From a virus: a DNA stretch of 64,000 bases. Numbering within the stretch: the first letter of the stretch is position 1; every line of letters starts with the position of its first letter. The position numbers and the translations under genes were made by a program. Positions 9,069 to 62,268 of the stretch are shown here, piece after piece. The stretch is taken from the IMG/VR virus record IMGVR_UViG_3300049491_000383, positions 72,080 through 136,079 of that record; one strand, written 5' to 3'. The notes under the pieces were generated by a model that saw only the letters and a list, made by a program, of their open reading frames with translations, was not told where the DNA came from and made no database searches.

Positions 9069-9167
9069 TGGTAGGAGAACTTGGAATCGAACCAAGGACG
9101 TGCCCCTATCTGGGGCCACGGAGTGCCGGTGTATAAGGCCGGTGTTTTACCACTAAACTATTCTCCC
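9069..9167 (-). tRNA. tRNA-Ile(TAT) with long variable arm
   Basis: Loop CT-TAT-AC, ~28-nt variable region with GCCC/GGGC hairpin, ACCA end. Confidence 0.8.
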
Positions 9168-14095: not shown

Positions 14096-15529
14096 TTAGA
14101 AGTCGTAACGCTGGACCATGACGGTCTTCAGCATGATGCTGATCGGTGTCATTTCTTCACCACCTAGCACTGACTTAACAATGCTTGGAGAGAAGCCAGA
14201 CACAAGAGCTGCACCAGCCTTGTTATAGGTCACCGGGCTGTTACCGGCGCGGCCGTTCAAGTTCCAGAATACAACCTGCGGTACCTTGTACCCTGCAGCC
14301 TGATATTCCTTCTCGATGAACTCCATCGCCGATACGCTAACCGGGCCGCCGCCTGTCGAGTAACGACCGCTCTTACCAGTACCACCCGAAGTGATGCACT
14401 GGTCGAATTCCATGTCCGACAAGATCAAGACCTTTGTCGGCATTTCCTTCTGCGGAACCTTACCCTTGATTGCGGCAGACAAGATTAACTTGAATACTGC
14501 ACCCAGGTCGGTGTTCATTCCCCAATCCGAACGTTCCATCTGGTTGAAACGCTGTTCCAAAGTACCAGACAACTTTACCATCTGTGGCGAACCAGAGAAA
14601 GTAACGAACTGATCCTTGAACACACCACCCATACGCTCGGAAGTGTACAGGCCAAGTGATACAGCTACGTCCAGCGCAGTTACGCTACCGGATACGGCCA
14701 CACCGCTCATCGAGCCCGAAACGTCAACAACCGGTAGGATGTTTTCGTCAGAACCTTCCAAGTAGTTAGGCAATGCCTTCCACTGTGCGTTTGCAACAGC
14801 CTTGTCACCGTTACGAAGCGAACGGATCACATCGTAAGGGTACGCAACCGAAGCGTTGATCTTGGCTTCACCAGATTCCAACTTCTCCTTGTACTTTGCG
14901 TAACCGGCCGGGTCGTGCTTCAAGAATGCCTTCTGGTAACGACCAGCAGCAACTGAAGGAACGTGTGGGTACACGATTCCAGTCCAGTCCTGAGCGCACA
15001 TCTTCTGTTCAACAGTGTTGGACAGACCGACCAAAAGCTTACGGTAAGCCTTAGGAGTCAACTTCATGTACGAACGGATCTTGTTGGCTTGTTCGCCCTG
15101 ACGCGGCATCCACTTCGCGCACAGACCGTCTTGCACGTCGTTCAACGCGAAAGCAATCATGCGCAGAGCATCACGCTCCAGCACAGTACCAAAAGTCATC
15201 AAGACGTCGTCCCAACGACCAAGTTCGGGAACCTTCACCAACAGGCGTTCTGCAAGCTTCGGCTCGGAACGGATTACGTAACCGAACAGCTTACGGAAAG
15301 TTTCACGCTCACCCGCACCACCACGTGCGTCACGAGCCCATTCAAGGACACGGATCGCAACTTCGGAGTCTTCCACCAAAGCACCTGCGAAAGTGCTTGT
15401 GATGTCCTTACCACGGCTTGCACCGGCCAAGAAGAAGAGGTCCACGTTCTTGTTCAAAGACGAGGAGTTTGTAACTGCGCCGTTGGAAGTTACTGCGGAT
15501 GCGTTTACGGCTTCAAATAGTGTTGTCAT
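14096..15529 (-). CDS. DUF2828-type Ro60/TROVE-like protein with C-terminal vWA domain
   Basis: T.NGA...SS...VDLFF, RD.RGG.GER, GRWDD, AKWMPR, MIDAS DVSGSM, TDL..VF, SDMEFD, VFWNL, VSGFS. Confidence 0.85.
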   Translation of the reverse strand: MTTLFEAVNASAVTSNGAVTNSSSLNKNVDLFFLAGASRGKDITSTFAGALVEDSEVAIRVLEWARDARGGAGERETFRKLFGYVIRSEPKLAERLLVKVPELGRWDDVLMTFGTVLERDALRMIAFALNDVQDGLCAKWMPRQGEQANKIRSYMKLTPKAYRKLLVGLSNTVEQKMCAQDWTGIVYPHVPSVAAGRYQKAFLKHDPAGYAKYKEKLESGEAKINASVAYPYDVIRSLRNGDKAVANAQWKALPNYLEGSDENILPVVDVSGSMSGVAVSGSVTALDVAVSLGLYTSERMGGVFKDQFVTFSGSPQMVKLSGTLEQRFNQMERSDWGMNTDLGAVFKLILSAAIKGKVPQKEMPTKVLILSDMEFDQCITSGGTGKSGRYSTGGGPVSVSAMEFIEKEYQAAGYKVPQVVFWNLNGRAGNSPVTYNKAGAALVSGFSPSIVKSVLGGEEMTPISIMLKTVMVQRYDF

Positions 15530-17939: not shown

Positions 17940-19025
17940 TCAATCCTCTTCCTTTAATAGGAATTTGTTGCTGATGGTTTTGAAACTAAAACCACCATCC
18001 ATTCTCTTGTAAACAAGACCTTCACGAATCGCATGCTTGATGCTAGGACCTTCTGCAAATGCAAGCAACTTATCCACATCAAACAACCCGAATTCATACA
18101 ATGGAACATCCATATGCAGAACAGGGACATGATGTACCATCTCGCGATTTACACCTCGTGCCCAAAGCTCATCCAAAATCAGATGACGTTCTCTCGGAGG
18201 TACATAACCACCTGTGGTAATATTGAAGATGTCAAACACAAACAATTTATGCGAAGCAAATGCCTCACGATTCTTCTGTATACCCGGGCCCATGAGCTCA
18301 GCTTGTACAGCAAAATCTCTGTCAAAAGAGCGCATAATATCGTGTAGCCCGCTGTCTACAAACATGCGTACCAAACTATTGTGCTCGTTTTTAGGATCAT
18401 CCAACTTCAGTTCCCAATTACGACCGCAAACACCCGGAACACCATCCTTTACAAATGCAGTAAAGGAAGTACCATCGAACTTCATGCTGATTTCGTAACG
18501 TGCATCCGCGTTATCAACAAAGATATCGCGCTTCATGTTTTGGCAACGTTCCTGATCAGTCTTTCGAATGAATGCAGGGAAGTTACCCTTCACTTGACCA
18601 GCAAGTTCTGTAGGAATGGCAGCTTCATACTTCTGGATATCCAACAAGTCAGATACGTCGGTGCCGACCATAAAGAACTCTGAAAGTTCCTGTCCTTCAT
18701 CTTCGTCGGAATCAATAAAGTCGTTGAAGAACAAATTCACAGGTAATGCAAGGCCCTGGCTGAGCTGACCACGCAACTTAATAGTCTTGATACGGAAACC
18801 CTCACGCTCTCCCATTCTCTTGGAGGAGTTTCTGCGCAAGATTTCGAATTCGGGACGGACAGGCAAATGGCTGTCGATTTCAAAGTAGACACACAAATCG
18901 CCCACATTGAATTCAGACTTCTTTACCACGCATTGCCAGCCATCAATTTTTGCCAGCTGAACTAAGTCCGCACCTTCGATAGGTAGCAGATCATCAATCC
19001 TACGTATTGTTGCAAGCTTTCTCAT
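17940..19025 (-). CDS. ATP-dependent RNA ligase, DRB0094/Rnl5 family
   Basis: N-terminal OB fold (I.GAD..., YFEIDS, KLRGQLSQGL), KTDQER, motif I KFDG, EGLVYK, SFK.IS. Confidence 0.9.
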   Translation of the reverse strand: MRKLATIRRIDDLLPIEGADLVQLAKIDGWQCVVKKSEFNVGDLCVYFEIDSHLPVRPEFEILRRNSSKRMGEREGFRIKTIKLRGQLSQGLALPVNLFFNDFIDSDEDEGQELSEFFMVGTDVSDLLDIQKYEAAIPTELAGQVKGNFPAFIRKTDQERCQNMKRDIFVDNADARYEISMKFDGTSFTAFVKDGVPGVCGRNWELKLDDPKNEHNSLVRMFVDSGLHDIMRSFDRDFAVQAELMGPGIQKNREAFASHKLFVFDIFNITTGGYVPPRERHLILDELWARGVNREMVHHVPVLHMDVPLYEFGLFDVDKLLAFAEGPSIKHAIREGLVYKRMDGGFSFKTISNKFLLKEED

Positions 19026-34902: not shown

Positions 34903-34978
34903 TGGCGCGTTGTCGGGGGATCGAACCCCGTCACCTTCAGATTTAGAATCCGCCGCTCTCCCACTGAGCTAACAACGC
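34903..34978 (-). tRNA. amber suppressor tRNA (anticodon CTA)
   Basis: Full cloverleaf, anticodon arm GCGGA-TT-CTA-AA-TCTGA, G73, CCA. Confidence 0.85.
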
Positions 34979-37200: not shown

Positions 37201-37222
37201 GAAAATGGGGCCGAAGCCCCAT
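37201..37222 (-). terminator. terminator after tmRNA
   Basis: ATGGGGC-TTCG-GCCCCAT followed by TTT. Confidence 0.75.
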
Positions 37223-37610
37223 GGTATTTTGGTTTACAAGGTATAACCTACCCCGGAGTCTAGTGTTTCTTAGGCAGCTAGGAGCATCATGTCGCTATCA
37301 GCCAAGGCTGAAAGGTCAAGAGCTGTCTCAGTTGTAATTGCGTTTGCTTTTACGGTTTGTGCTTGATTTACGGTCATCGCCTACCGTGTTGTCCACTCTC
37401 GTACTCTTTACCCCGTCGAATACCTGGTCCGCCCCATTATTAAACATACCGTGAAAAATTCGAATTCTCTTTCCTGCCCATACAACAGGTGACCGTCTTT
37501 AAGCTGGAGTCGAACCAGCAATAACCCATTCGATATGTTTAATGGTGGAGCGGGCGGGAATCGAACCCGCGTCCGGAACACTTTTCTGTTCGCTTCATAC
37601 AACAATAACT
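37222..37610 (-). ncRNA. ssrA: circularly permuted (two-piece) tmRNA
   Basis: The T-arm and ...CGCTCCACCA end (37543) lie upstream of the 5' end GGGGCGGACCAGGTATTCGAC (37435). G3:U70 is present. The tag ORF at 37347-37270 reads ANAITTETALDLSALADSDMMLLAA*. Confidence 0.9.
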
Positions 37611-38159: not shown

Positions 38160-38828
38160 TTACCACATTAAATCGAAGTAACCTCTCATTACCTTACTAA
38201 CTGTAGCACTTGCACCAGTGTTGTGATCTTTTACACTATCATCCTGAAAACGATATGTACGGATCTTATCACCACGCATGCCAGATCCGACCTGTTGTTT
38301 ACGATCACTATCTAGGTTCTGTTTGAACTCTCTGCGTGCTTGTGAACTAAGTGTCTCTAGCAGTGCTTGTTTCGCCGATTCTAGGCTATTTTGCCTAGAA
38401 CGACATTGTGCTGTGGCAGTCTGGCCTGTAGGCAAATACGTCATACGACACGAATTTTGATGTTTATTTCTGTGTTGGCCGCCTGCACCTGTGCCGCTAT
38501 ACCATTCAATTCTAAAATCAGATTCCTTGTATTCTTCTACACGCAATTCGGGATCAGTGATCGCAACTGTTACGGTGCTGGTATGAACTCTGCCTTTGCG
38601 CTCTGTTGGAGGTACTCGTTGAATACGGTGACCACCTGCCTCATTCTGTAACTTAGATAAATCTGTGCCAACTACTTCTAAAAAGATTTCGCCCGGCACT
38701 TCCTTAACTATGCGATTGATTCAGCCGACTCTATCGCAGTGTCGTTGGTATGCTTGAGCAAGATCCATTGCGAATAGCTTGCTATCTTCTCCGCCTTCGG
38801 CGGCACGTATTTCAATAACTCTCTTCAT
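38160..38828 (-). CDS. prfA: RF1-like class I peptide chain release factor lacking domain 1, with in-frame TGA at codon 36
   Basis: SD GGAGG and ATG at 38828; EIRAAEGGEDSKLF...VG*INR; HRIQRVPPTE (PxT), GAGGQH, RSRQ.S, KIRTY.F. Confidence 0.85.
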
Positions 38829-38846
38829 ATTGCCTCCATAAAAACT

Positions 38847-38924
38847 TGGCGGGGCGTACGGGATTCGAACCCGTGGTCTCTGACGTGACAGGCCAGCGCA
38901 TTAGGCCAACTATGCTAACGCCCC
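38847..38924 (-). tRNA. tRNA-Asp(GTC)
   Basis: Canonical, loop CT-GTC-AC, G73. Confidence 0.93.
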
Positions 38925-38927
38925 AAA

Positions 38928-39266
38928 TTTGATTACCCTATAGCCGGGGTTCTGTGCCTCTTTCGAGCGACAATCATTCATCTACGGTATTTAGCCGTCC
39001 TCCCCAGGTTTCAATCTGGATCATAGGTGCCACAACCCGAACCCTCGGCGAACAGCGTCAACGAGTTCTGTTTGTGTTACTGCGGGATCGTTGTGGTACA
39101 AGCGTGTTATGAACGTATAGTGCAGGGTCTCATCGACCTGGGGCCACTCTATCCATTTCCTTATGGGCGTTCTATAGCGTATAACACTTCCACAGAGCGA
39201 TGAACCCTGTTCTATGCAGGCCCGAACTTCCTCTACCTTTCAGCAGCGATTGTCCAGGTAATCAAA
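38928..39266 (-). ncRNA. rnpB: RNase P RNA
   Basis: P1 TTTGATTACC/GGTAATCAAA, GACAATCGC...GAGGAAGTTCGGGC (CR-I), AGATGAATGATTGTC (CR-IV), ACAGAACCCCGGCTATA (CR-V). Confidence 0.88.
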
Positions 39267-39579
39267 TATTGTAATAATCAAACTTCTCTAGTCTTCTAAG
39301 TAACTCGTCTCTCAGAGCATCCAGTGCGTATGGGGCACGTGGTGGGGTCTGAACAGGGTCGTAATGATGAATTTTAACTTCATCCTCATACCATTCGAGA
39401 AGCTTTTTGCTTGTTTCATTTTCTATTGTCATGATTATTTGTTCGGTTGAGATACCACCGGGCGTCGACTAACGCCCTGCTGTATATTCACTCTCGGAAT
39501 GCAGTCCTAAAGCATGGAATCGCTACCAACCTAAAATGTAGTCTTAGCGGTACCTCAGGACTAAGTGTAGCTGTAATCG

Positions 39580-40246: not shown

Positions 40247-41017
40247 TTATTTATCAGATCCTAGACGTAATAGTGGGATGAAGATACGGCAGGGATCATA
40301 TTCCCACCATTTAGATCCGAAATCAAACTTAGCTGGGTATTTGTGATGATTATTGTGCCAGCCCTGTCCCCAACCTAAATACCCAAGTGGTACAAAGTTA
40401 GAACTGATATCATCTGTGTCAAAGTTTCTGTATCCAAGACTTGGCCAATGTCCAAAGACATTTACTGAAAAATCTTGAAGCATTGATATTGTTGCTGCAA
40501 TGCAGTATCCAAATAGAAGTGCTTTCCAACTTACAAGTCCAAGAAGGATAACAAATATCCATACAAGTTTGAAGTAATGTTTATGTGCAAATACGTGATT
40601 GGGTTTACGCAGTAGTTTCACAGCATATTTGTGATTCACAGATTGTGCTGTAACATGAAATATCCAACCAATAAATGCATACCATTTTCCCTTGTTAGGT
40701 GTATGTGGATCTTTTTCGGTATCGGCATGTGGGTGGTGATAACCCATATGTGTTGCTACCCAGGTGATTGAACTACTCTGGCAGGCAAGTGTTCCACATG
40801 TAAGAATAACATTATCAAGCCAAGGTTTCAATATATAACAACGGTGACTATATACTCTGTGAAATCCGGTAGCAATACCGAGCCCACTGAGTAATACCCA
40901 GAAGATAAAAGTAAGCAGGAGCCACGCATATGCCCCCGTTATTATCATTGTTGTAAGACCGATAATGCCCAATAGTGTTATCGGTAATACAATTAACCCG
41001 AAGTACCTAAAATTCAT
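40247..41017 (-). CDS. membrane fatty-acid desaturase (delta-9 type)
   Basis: His boxes HRVYSH, HMGYHH, WHNNHH; DPH.P. Confidence 0.92.
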   Translation of the reverse strand: MNFRYFGLIVLPITLLGIIGLTTMIITGAYAWLLLTFIFWVLLSGLGIATGFHRVYSHRCYILKPWLDNVILTCGTLACQSSSITWVATHMGYHHPHADTEKDPHTPNKGKWYAFIGWIFHVTAQSVNHKYAVKLLRKPNHVFAHKHYFKLVWIFVILLGLVSWKALLFGYCIAATISMLQDFSVNVFGHWPSLGYRNFDTDDISSNFVPLGYLGWGQGWHNNHHKYPAKFDFGSKWWEYDPCRIFIPLLRLGSDK

Positions 41018-61984: not shown

Positions 61985-62268
61985 ATAAATTTTGAAGTTG
62001 TTATCCAAACACACGAGGAGAATCGAACTCCCACACACGCCTTGCTGACGCCGCACTGCCATTATGCTACATGCTCATTTCTAAAGACCTACGTCAACAG
62101 TTACAGAAGAAACGTGGATACAACTATTAAAGTCAGTTGACGCTGACTATAATTCTTTGAATGCTATTTGCAGGGGAGTCGAACACGCCACCTTAATGTA
62201 TCTAGATTGGTAAACACACTAATGTACCGACCAGAGATCCAATCACCTCTATGCACGGTTGCAAAATC

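Follow-up and report, generated by a model that had tools for sequence, protein, structure and literature searches.

A predicted RNase P RNA gene within a phage tRNA array

We analysed a 64,000-nucleotide (nt) stretch of the virus record IMGVR_UViG_3300049491_000383, hereafter the window, which carries on its minus strand a putative gene for the RNA of ribonuclease P (RNase P). The 136 kb IMG/VR record (completeness about 35%, a CheckV estimate) is a fragment of a large tailed phage, because a tail sheath gene (E 1.7e-231), a large terminase gene (E 2.7e-126) and genes for ribonucleotide reductase, helicases and virion proteins lie upstream of the window. These phage genes share the record with the RNase P RNA, which bears out a first-pass annotation of the same DNA that had called the gene phage-encoded. 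ARAGORN found 55 transfer RNA (tRNA) genes and a two-piece transfer-messenger RNA (tmRNA) in the window, every one on the minus strand. The 57 tRNA and tmRNA genes of the record all lie inside the window, on the same strand as the RNase P RNA. A default Rfam scan of the window at the gathering cut-off listed 47 tRNAs and the permuted tmRNA, and did not list RNase P.

When 801 bases around the locus were searched alone with permissive filters, the Rfam model of bacterial class A RNase P RNA (RF00010) matched positions 38925-39265 with 68.5 bits (E 1.3e-20). The same match was the sole one in the whole 136 kb record (E 5.2e-22), and class A was the best family of its clan for this RNA. Thus the RNase P RNA that the first-pass annotation had placed at 38928-39266 is confirmed with slightly shifted ends, and the covariance-model check that it proposed gave an end-to-end match, though one under the Rfam gathering cut-off for this family (100 bits). 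The deficit in score falls in the specificity domain, which the model skips. Judged by this match and by the pairing described below, the window RNA is a full-length homologue of bacterial class A RNase P RNA.

The gene directly abuts a tRNA-Asp(GUC) gene, which is likely to be the first substrate of the RNA. The junction of RNase P RNA and tRNA-Asp recurs in one related locus (L114), and in two others (L034 and L062) the RNase P RNA adjoins tRNAs within about 20 nt. More generally, tRNA genes occur in 23 of the 27 related loci, often as large same-strand arrays, and gene synteny with relatives extends over both flanks of the RNase P RNA. Contigs from an independent freshwater DNA run (X2) were identical to the window over 38700-38995 and 39112-39500, with no contig across 38996-39111.

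Anatomy of the catalytic domain

A helix model of the window RNA was written by hand and each pair was checked as a standard pair (Table 1). The class A catalytic helices P1-P3 and P5, the P15-P16-P17 arm and the P6 pseudoknot were all present with valid pairs, and the 10-base-pair P1 of the first-pass annotation was recovered in full. The J16/15 loop GGGU (RNA 228-231), J18/2 (UAGAUGAAUG) and J2/4 (ACAGAA) all match the Rfam consensus. Among 11 relatives, CR-I and the 5' strand of P4 were invariant in 11/11, most of these sequences having been selected by a search pattern for it. Elements that were not used for selection were also invariant in all 11, namely J5/15 AA, L15 CGGGUUG (RNA 227-233) and the UAG and AUG of J18/2; J2/4 ACAGAA and most of J18/2 were invariant as well. 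The GGU motif of L15 pairs with the 3'-CCA of tRNA, and from its sequence the CCA-binding GGU loop is intact in the window RNA. The universal conserved regions that the first-pass annotation had noted are therefore there as far as the catalytic-domain blocks go, and missing in the specificity domain, where J11/12 and J12/13 are unrecognisable.

Table 1. The RNase P RNA locus and neighbouring features in window coordinates. RNA position i corresponds to window position 39266 - i.
Feature	Window	Strand	RNA positions	Remarks
RNase P RNA gene	38925..39265	minus		341 nt; RF00010 (RNaseP_bact_a) model 1-367 of 367
P1, 5' strand	39256..39265	minus	1-10	10/10 standard pairs; 7/10 change on both sides (11 relatives)
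P2			12-18 / 291-297	
P3			20-24 / 29-33	GAAA loop
CR-I and P4, 5' strand	39220..39233	minus	33-46	GAGGAAGUUCGGGC; one bulged U (U40 or U41)
P5			47-50 / 183-186	
P6 pseudoknot, 5' strand	39209..39212	minus	54-57	GAAC; pairs with P17 loop
Remodelled specificity domain	39084..39207	minus	59-182	two-part P7, P10, long P11-like stem, short hairpins
P7, two parts			59-61 / 180-182 and 65-68 / 176-179	
P10			73-76 / 170-173	GUGG/CCAC
P15-P16-P17 arm	39031..39076	minus	190-235	L15 loop GGGU at 39035-39038
P15			190-193 / 232-235	
P16			198-203 / 222-227	
P17			209-211 / 217-220	
P6 pseudoknot, 3' strand	39050..39053	minus	213-216	GUUC, in P17 loop
Two hairpins at the P18 place	38984..39019	minus	247-262 and 268-282	loops of 8 and 7 nt, no GNRA tetraloop
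P19-like GAAA hairpin	38956..38968	minus	298-310	between P2 and J2/4; closest relatives only; 75% of cells paired, many gaps
J2/4 and P4, 3' strand	38940..38955	minus	311-326	ACAGAACCCCGGCUAU; pairs with P4 5' strand
P1, 3' strand	38929..38938	minus	328-337	then 4-nt tail (38925-38928); tRNA-Asp starts at 38924
tRNA-Asp(GUC)	38847..38924	minus		encoded CCA; abuts RNase P RNA 3' end; ARAGORN and Rfam
Release-factor-like gene	38160-38828	minus		
Permuted two-piece tmRNA	37270-37604	minus		RF04321, 115.4 bits
Terminator-like hairpin	37205-37222			
tRNA with anticodon CUA	34903-34978	minus		
Fatty-acid desaturase-like open reading frame	40247-41017	minus		PF00487, E 2.3e-15

A P4 helix with swapped pairs

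The first-pass annotation had called the strands of P4 variant, and we read them exactly as it wrote them, GAGGAAGUUCGGG and ACAGAACCCCGGCUAU. In the covariance model's own ungapped register of these strands, P4 consists of A38-U324, G39-C323, U40.G322, C42-G321, G43-C320, G44-C319 and G45-C318, with U41 bulged. The canonical strands GAGGAAAGUCCGG / ACAGAAnCCGGCUUA were found in 30/30 cellular rnpB loci read (an unpublished locus left out). Compared with these, three pairs are swapped in the phage helix: A-U to G-C, G-C to U.G and C-G to G-C, which we take to be pairs 67-363, 68-362 and 71-360 in E. coli numbering. The bulged U, the helix length and the flanking GAGGAA and ACAGAA are kept. P4 has thus been rewritten with its pairing, bulge and length preserved, and this speaks against decay and for a catalytic core that works. 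Within the set of 11 relatives P4 is invariant and shows no covariation, partly because the sequences were found through P4.

Compensatory changes among relatives

For the analysis of covariation we used a structure-blind MAFFT alignment of 11 sequences that share the specificity-domain motifs CGCUCUnUGG and ACCACAACG. The catalytic-domain model plus P7 and P10 was projected onto this alignment, and as a control the pairing partners were slid by 1-3 columns. Standard pairs filled 93.6% of the 736 pair cells (32.4-47.1% when slid), and 32 of the 72 pairs changed on both sides (6-10 when slid). The covariation score was reached by none of 500 shuffles. P5, P6, P15, P16 and P17 were 98-100% paired. 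In P6 all cells (100%) were paired and two of the four pairs were compensatory, with the versions GAAC/GUUC, GAGC/GCUC and GAGU/ACUC; P15, P16 and P17, also 100% paired, had two, three and one pairs changed on both sides, respectively. Compensatory change was likewise seen in P5 and in both hairpins of the P18 region (4/4 and 2/4 pairs both-sided). On this comparative evidence the catalytic-domain helices (P1-P6, P15-P17 and the P18 region) are maintained by compensatory change, and such changes over 11 relatives point to purifying selection on structure.

A remodelled specificity domain

The RF00010 model could not align RNA 62-179, and the specificity-domain architecture that it describes (P7-P10 junction, P11-P14, J11/12 and J12/13) was not found; in particular, the Rfam-consensus blocks ACAGAAA of J11/12 and GGUGAAA of J12/13 were unrecognisable in the window RNA. 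P7 and P10 are separated by 4 nt (CUCU), and by 2 nt (AA) on the return strand; because of this spacing of only 4 nt, P8 and P9 cannot exist. Since L18 of bacterial RNase P RNA docks on P8, P8 and a GNRA-type L18 would have been lost together.

Of the domain that is there, pairing in at least four of the five closest sequences was seen for P7b, for P10 and for the initial four pairs of the P11-like stem. Positions 65/179, 66/178, 80/161 and 81/160 showed compensatory change, and the same five sequences gave partial support to an inner hairpin (128-131 / 137-140). The remaining helices depend on the alignment and were not used for conclusions. A high-scoring relative with the same P4 (L013) aligns through P8, P9, P10-P14 and a GNRA-looped P18. 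Because this relative keeps these elements, the form seen in the window would be one derived within the phage lineage.

A phage-borne lineage

The 5' motif together with CAUAG was present in 11 other viral stretches, and a full-length RF00010 match lay at the motif in nine of the ten viral records that could be searched. Three relatives scored above the cut-off (165-168 bits), and one of these three lies in a 360 kb record with a completeness of 91%; five others reached 62-67 bits (three of these only 250 nt long) and one 22 bits. In a wider search, 77 viral stretches were picked by the 3' strand of P4 alone. The variant 5' strand lay 98-342 nt upstream in 39 of them, as exactly GAGGAAGUUCGGG in 35, with C for the first U in three (U.G to C-G) and with another single change in one. 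The other 38 had no recognisable 5' strand; we estimate that chance matches are to be expected for a 15-base pattern. We define the lineage by GAGGAAGUUCGGG paired with ACAGAAnCCCGGCUAU on viral DNA, and the window carries this combination. Over 41 loci the two P4 strands stand 98 to 342 nt apart (278 nt in the window), and by this measure the loci are a natural reduction series. Swapped-pair P4 helices with little or no specificity domain were seen in L014, L018, L019 (250 nt) and L117 (98 nt between the P4 strands).

To place the motif among cells, one genome for each of 185,579 species (596 billion bases) was searched. The 5' motif occurred at 32 places, about the chance level that we estimate for 18 fixed bases, and both P4 strands were present at only two of them; this search required CAUAG, so that a cellular gene with the same P4 and a different J5/7 would be missed. 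One of the two is contig C27 of the alphaproteobacterial metagenome-assembled genome (MAG) G011 (L034/L125), with a phage-type RNase P RNA in a tRNA array; a normal rnpB (277.6 bits) is carried by a different contig of G011. The second is the 12.7 kb contig C389 (L051/L124) of G012, an archaeal MAG labelled Nitrososphaerales, where it is the only RNase P match. Both contigs are probably phage DNA binned with cells. In a sample of the alphaproteobacterial class, RF00010 matched in 60 of the 61 genomes (59/60 without an unpublished one) with best scores of 199-338 bits, and MAG G011 alone had a second full-length copy.

Several candidate matches were discarded. L003 and L122 were chance matches to the motif without an RNase P gene, the 3' strand of P4 was absent from L006, and for the doubtful cellular matches L035, L037 and L022 the covariance models returned no RNase P. 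No viral contig contained an exact copy of a 29-mer from the window RNA, and blastn against 50,697 deposited phage records, a method that is weak for structured RNAs, gave no match for the window RNA, L013 or L054. Altogether, the sequence data support a conserved, phage-borne lineage of class A-type RNase P RNAs with a swapped-pair P4. The earlier remark that viral RNase P RNAs are uncommon agrees with a literature in which we found no phage-encoded one described; it has to be qualified in view of at least 39 other viral contigs of this one lineage.

Protein partner, substrates and transcripts

As noted in the first-pass annotation, no RnpA is evident in the window. The RnpA domain (PF00825) was found in none of five phage records, comprising the window's whole 136 kb record (only about 35% complete) and four relatives, among them the 360 kb record; as a control, the same search found it in 10 of 14 genomes. 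On the substrate side, 52 of the 55 tRNA genes encode 3'-CCA and 43 have U at position -1, and the predicted phage substrates therefore suit a class A enzyme whose GGU loop is intact.

The RNase P RNA is likely to be co-transcribed with the tRNA array. Six RNA libraries held small shares of the stretch, and we examined three of them, from three studies. Coverage by their contigs was limited to the conserved 3' catalytic half (38925/38938 to 39098/39106), where identity was 90-99%; the contigs diverge from the window exactly where the specificity domain begins and must for this reason come from relatives. Two of the contigs, from two studies, end at 38935-38941 inside the 3' strand of P1 with no loose end, at a place past which the DNA run extends. 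We take this as a weak hint of family members present as RNAs of about that extent.

Neighbouring genes

Downstream of the RNase P RNA, a release-factor-like gene is found in the window and in the related loci L007, L098, L108 and L114; upstream, two small open reading frames (ORFs) are found in L114 and L104. The product of the release-factor-like gene in the window has no domain 1; PCRF and RF-1 domains are present, as is GGQ. Among NCBIfam models prfA matches best, at 186 bits and well short of the cut-off, and where RF1 has PxT the protein reads PPT. An in-frame TGA follows ...DRVG, and the same codon is TGA, with conserved sequence on both sides, in 5/5 homologues (window, L007, L114, L098 and L108). 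Programmed read-through, local recoding or autoregulation are possible explanations. Genome-wide recoding of TGA was dropped as not decisive: the record has no tRNA(UCA), and the crude stop-to-stop ORF total rises whichever stop is removed (36,152 amino acids under code 11; 58,708 with sense TGA, 51,460 with sense TAA and 46,835 with sense TAG). Alongside this RF1-like factor the window has a tRNA with anticodon CUA (amber suppressor; ARAGORN label Pyl), and L008 also carries a tRNA(CUA).

For the permuted tmRNA, ARAGORN predicted the tag ANAITTETALDLSALADSDMMLLAA. The one terminator-like hairpin in this region lies after the tmRNA gene, and tmRNAs also occur in the related loci L076 and L072. 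Ten of the 55 ARAGORN tRNA calls fall under the Rfam tRNA cut-off (1922, 51802, 52422, 53745, 57572, 58303, 58977, 59366, 61724 and 62470), one of them with a two-base 'anticodon', and 45 pass; two tRNAs were called by Rfam and not by ARAGORN (9072-9167 and 62008-62076). Within the tRNA block, the minus-strand genes at 14096-15529 / 17940-19025 encode a DUF2828/DUF7788 'RNA-binding protein' (phrog_850, E 6e-150) and an RNA ligase (phrog_968, E 1.6e-89). The fatty-acid desaturase-like ORF lies 1 kb upstream of the RNase P RNA and has a weak homologue in L002. An ORF of 56 amino acids at 39262-39432 extends over the start of P1; a role as cofactor is improbable, as it had no Pfam or PHROG match and no tblastn match in related loci. 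An array of similar size, 56 tRNAs within a 66 kb repeat, is given for phage XacN1 in the part of its description available to us. Two window proteins compared with deposited phages gave only matches of <60% identity, and XacN1 was not among the matches listed.

Proposed role and alternative explanations

We judge it fairly likely that the window RNA is an active ribozyme that works with the RnpA of the host, matures phage pre-tRNAs and has its own 3' end cut at tRNA-Asp. It would be transcribed together with the tRNA array, and RNase P cleavage at the 5' end of tRNA-Asp would release the 3' end of the ribozyme. The phage RNA would assemble with host RnpA, because the phage has none, and the holoenzyme would trim the 5' leaders of phage pre-tRNAs and of the tmRNA. 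In this way the phage would gain processing capacity when a burst of its tRNA transcripts would otherwise depend on the RNase P of the host. The remodelled specificity domain, with neither P8/P9 nor a GNRA loop on P18, probably alters or relaxes the reading of the tRNA elbow. Isolated catalytic domains and archaeal forms without a specificity domain can still cleave pre-tRNA.

Several observations weigh against an active ribozyme of this kind. The RF00010 score stays under the curated cut-off (68.5 versus 100 bits) and far from the 199-338 bits of cellular rnpB in the one bacterial class sampled. The single-sequence fold is not unusually stable (z = -1.26, with 8 of 100 shuffles as good), although such folding is uninformative for a pseudoknotted RNA. 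C46 lies opposite C317, leaving the would-be inner extension of P4 unpaired. With P8/P9, J11/12 and J12/13 lacking, bacterial-type recognition of the tRNA elbow cannot be assumed. No cofactor protein was seen in the five records searched for RnpA, and the use of host RnpA is an assumption. Promoter- and terminator-like sites near the gene numbered seven (6.4 expected), none above chance. Finally, the contigs from RNA libraries belong to relatives and not to the phage of the window, and such libraries can contain DNA.

The divergence of the RNA sits in the specificity domain, where P8/P9 and a GNRA-type L18 are jointly absent, and this would also be expected of a ribozyme that is active and retargeted, be it to odd tRNAs, to tRNA-mimic or Y-RNA-like RNAs, to the two-piece tmRNA or to the spacers of polycistrons. 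The first-pass annotation had suggested a specialisation of this kind, for the non-canonical tRNAs and the permuted tmRNA. Within the lineage of the same P4 the specificity domain goes from canonical (168 bits) to near none (98 nt from one P4 strand to the other), the permuted tmRNA is found 1.3 kb downstream, and 10/55 tRNA calls fall under the Rfam cut-off. We nevertheless regard retargeting as unlikely. The presumed substrates are mostly canonical (CCA in 52/55, U at -1 in 43/55 and a passing Rfam score in 45/55), the CCA-binding loop is invariant, the tRNA that adjoins the gene is an ordinary tRNA-Asp, and no particular odd RNA is linked to the ribozyme. A decoy, which would sequester host RnpA or compete for pre-tRNAs and so shift tRNA maturation in the host with catalysis of minor importance, has a viral precedent: the inactive RNase P-like RNA of camelpox virus is discussed as a possible decoy in the part of PMC3001073 available to us. 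It would also agree with the search for phage RnpA (found in 0/5 records), after which any protein partner must be the host's. Yet the best-kept elements serve chemistry and docking (the P4 geometry with its bulged U, J2/4 ACAGAA, J5/15 AA and the GGU of L15), a decoy would need neither the CCA-binding loop nor a P6 pseudoknot kept by compensatory change, and 55 tRNA genes raise a phage's need for processing rather than lower it. We give this explanation little credence.

That the locus does not work at all, being a chance piece of host rnpB, an assembly chimera or a decaying pseudogene, is largely refuted and seems highly improbable. The score under the cut-off would fit such an origin, as would the classification of one relative as a provirus and the fact that host DNA can be part of IMG/VR records. 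Against this, the gene is surrounded by a 64 kb phage tRNA block, sits midway along it on the strand of the tRNAs, and has flanks that are identical in the independent run. The variant P4 occurred in 0/30 of the cellular rnpB loci read, and of the 32 cellular matches to the motif only two had both P4 strands, one in a genome with a normal 277.6-bit rnpB and the other in an archaeal MAG. The compensatory changes over the 11 relatives speak of purifying selection on structure. Building on an active ribozyme with host RnpA, one could go further and see in these RNAs an old, phage-confined lineage, marked by the triple pair-swap in P4 and re-engineered stepwise from a full specificity domain over the new fold of the window RNA to miniatures with the catalytic domain only, in which the window form, by its new fold and captured host RnpA, favours phage tRNA and tRNA-like transcripts above those of the host and takes over tRNA maturation instead of just adding to it. 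This wider scenario is conceivable, but we hold it to be doubtful.

RNase P counts as a housekeeping ribozyme common to all cells, and tRNA-bearing phages are assumed to rely on the host enzyme. If our reading is right, a conserved phage lineage would add a ribozyme to the translation-related functions of large phages. It would also offer a natural series of RNAs in which one catalytic core is combined with specificity domains reduced to different degrees, so that the need for this domain and the choice of substrates could be studied, and it raises the question of whether a viral RNA takes over a host protein subunit. The swapped-pair P4 also offers an easy sequence mark by which phage-derived copies can be recognised in metagenome bins, such as the two MAGs that appear to hold such contigs.

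Comparison with known systems

A full-text literature search returned no paper that describes a phage-encoded RNase P RNA, although the supplementary non-coding RNA (ncRNA) tables of huge-phage papers could list such genes. In the portions available, reviews of 2016 and 2024 (PMC4919922, PMC11143913) treat phage RNAs only as substrates of host RNase P, and PMC8172020 has huge phages only in its reference list. The searched text of one huge-phage paper (PMC7162821) contains 'RNase P RNA' 0 times, its supplementary ncRNA tables lying outside the search.

The RNase P-like RNA of camelpox virus is virus-encoded and resembles RNase P RNA, as the window RNA does. According to the accessible part of its description (PMC3001073), it did not process pre-tRNA in vitro; its similarity is a loose structural one, and its source is a eukaryotic virus that has no tRNA array, whereas all catalytic-core blocks are conserved in the window RNA. 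A natural precedent for a reduced specificity domain is given by the RNase P RNAs of Pyrobaculum, which consist of the catalytic domain only (PMC4919922, as far as available). These are archaeal, work with archaeal proteins and have lost nearly the whole domain, whereas the window RNA has a remodelled domain on a bacterial class A core.

With class A RNase P RNA (RF00010; rnpB/M1 type) the window RNA shares P1-P5, the P4 and P6 pseudoknots, P15-P17 with the GGU of L15, J18/2 and J2/4. It differs in being phage-borne and in its score of 68.5 bits, has three swapped pairs in P4 and no accompanying RnpA gene, lacks P8/P9 and a recognisable J11/12 or J12/13, and has two non-GNRA hairpins in place of P18. 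A further comparison is within the phage lineage itself. The RNAs of G004/L013, G010/L021 and G007/L016 have the identical variant P4, large phage contigs and nearby tRNA genes, but keep P8, P9, P12-P14 and a GNRA L18 (165-168 bits); the subfamily of the window RNA sets itself apart from them by the motifs CGCUCUnUGG and ACCACAACG. The miniature phage RNAs of G003, G006 and G008 (250 nt) share the P4 lineage and the phage tRNA context. Little of the specificity domain is left in them, and their P4 strands are 98-199 nt apart, whereas the window RNA retains a remodelled domain of 124 nt and a distance of 278 nt.

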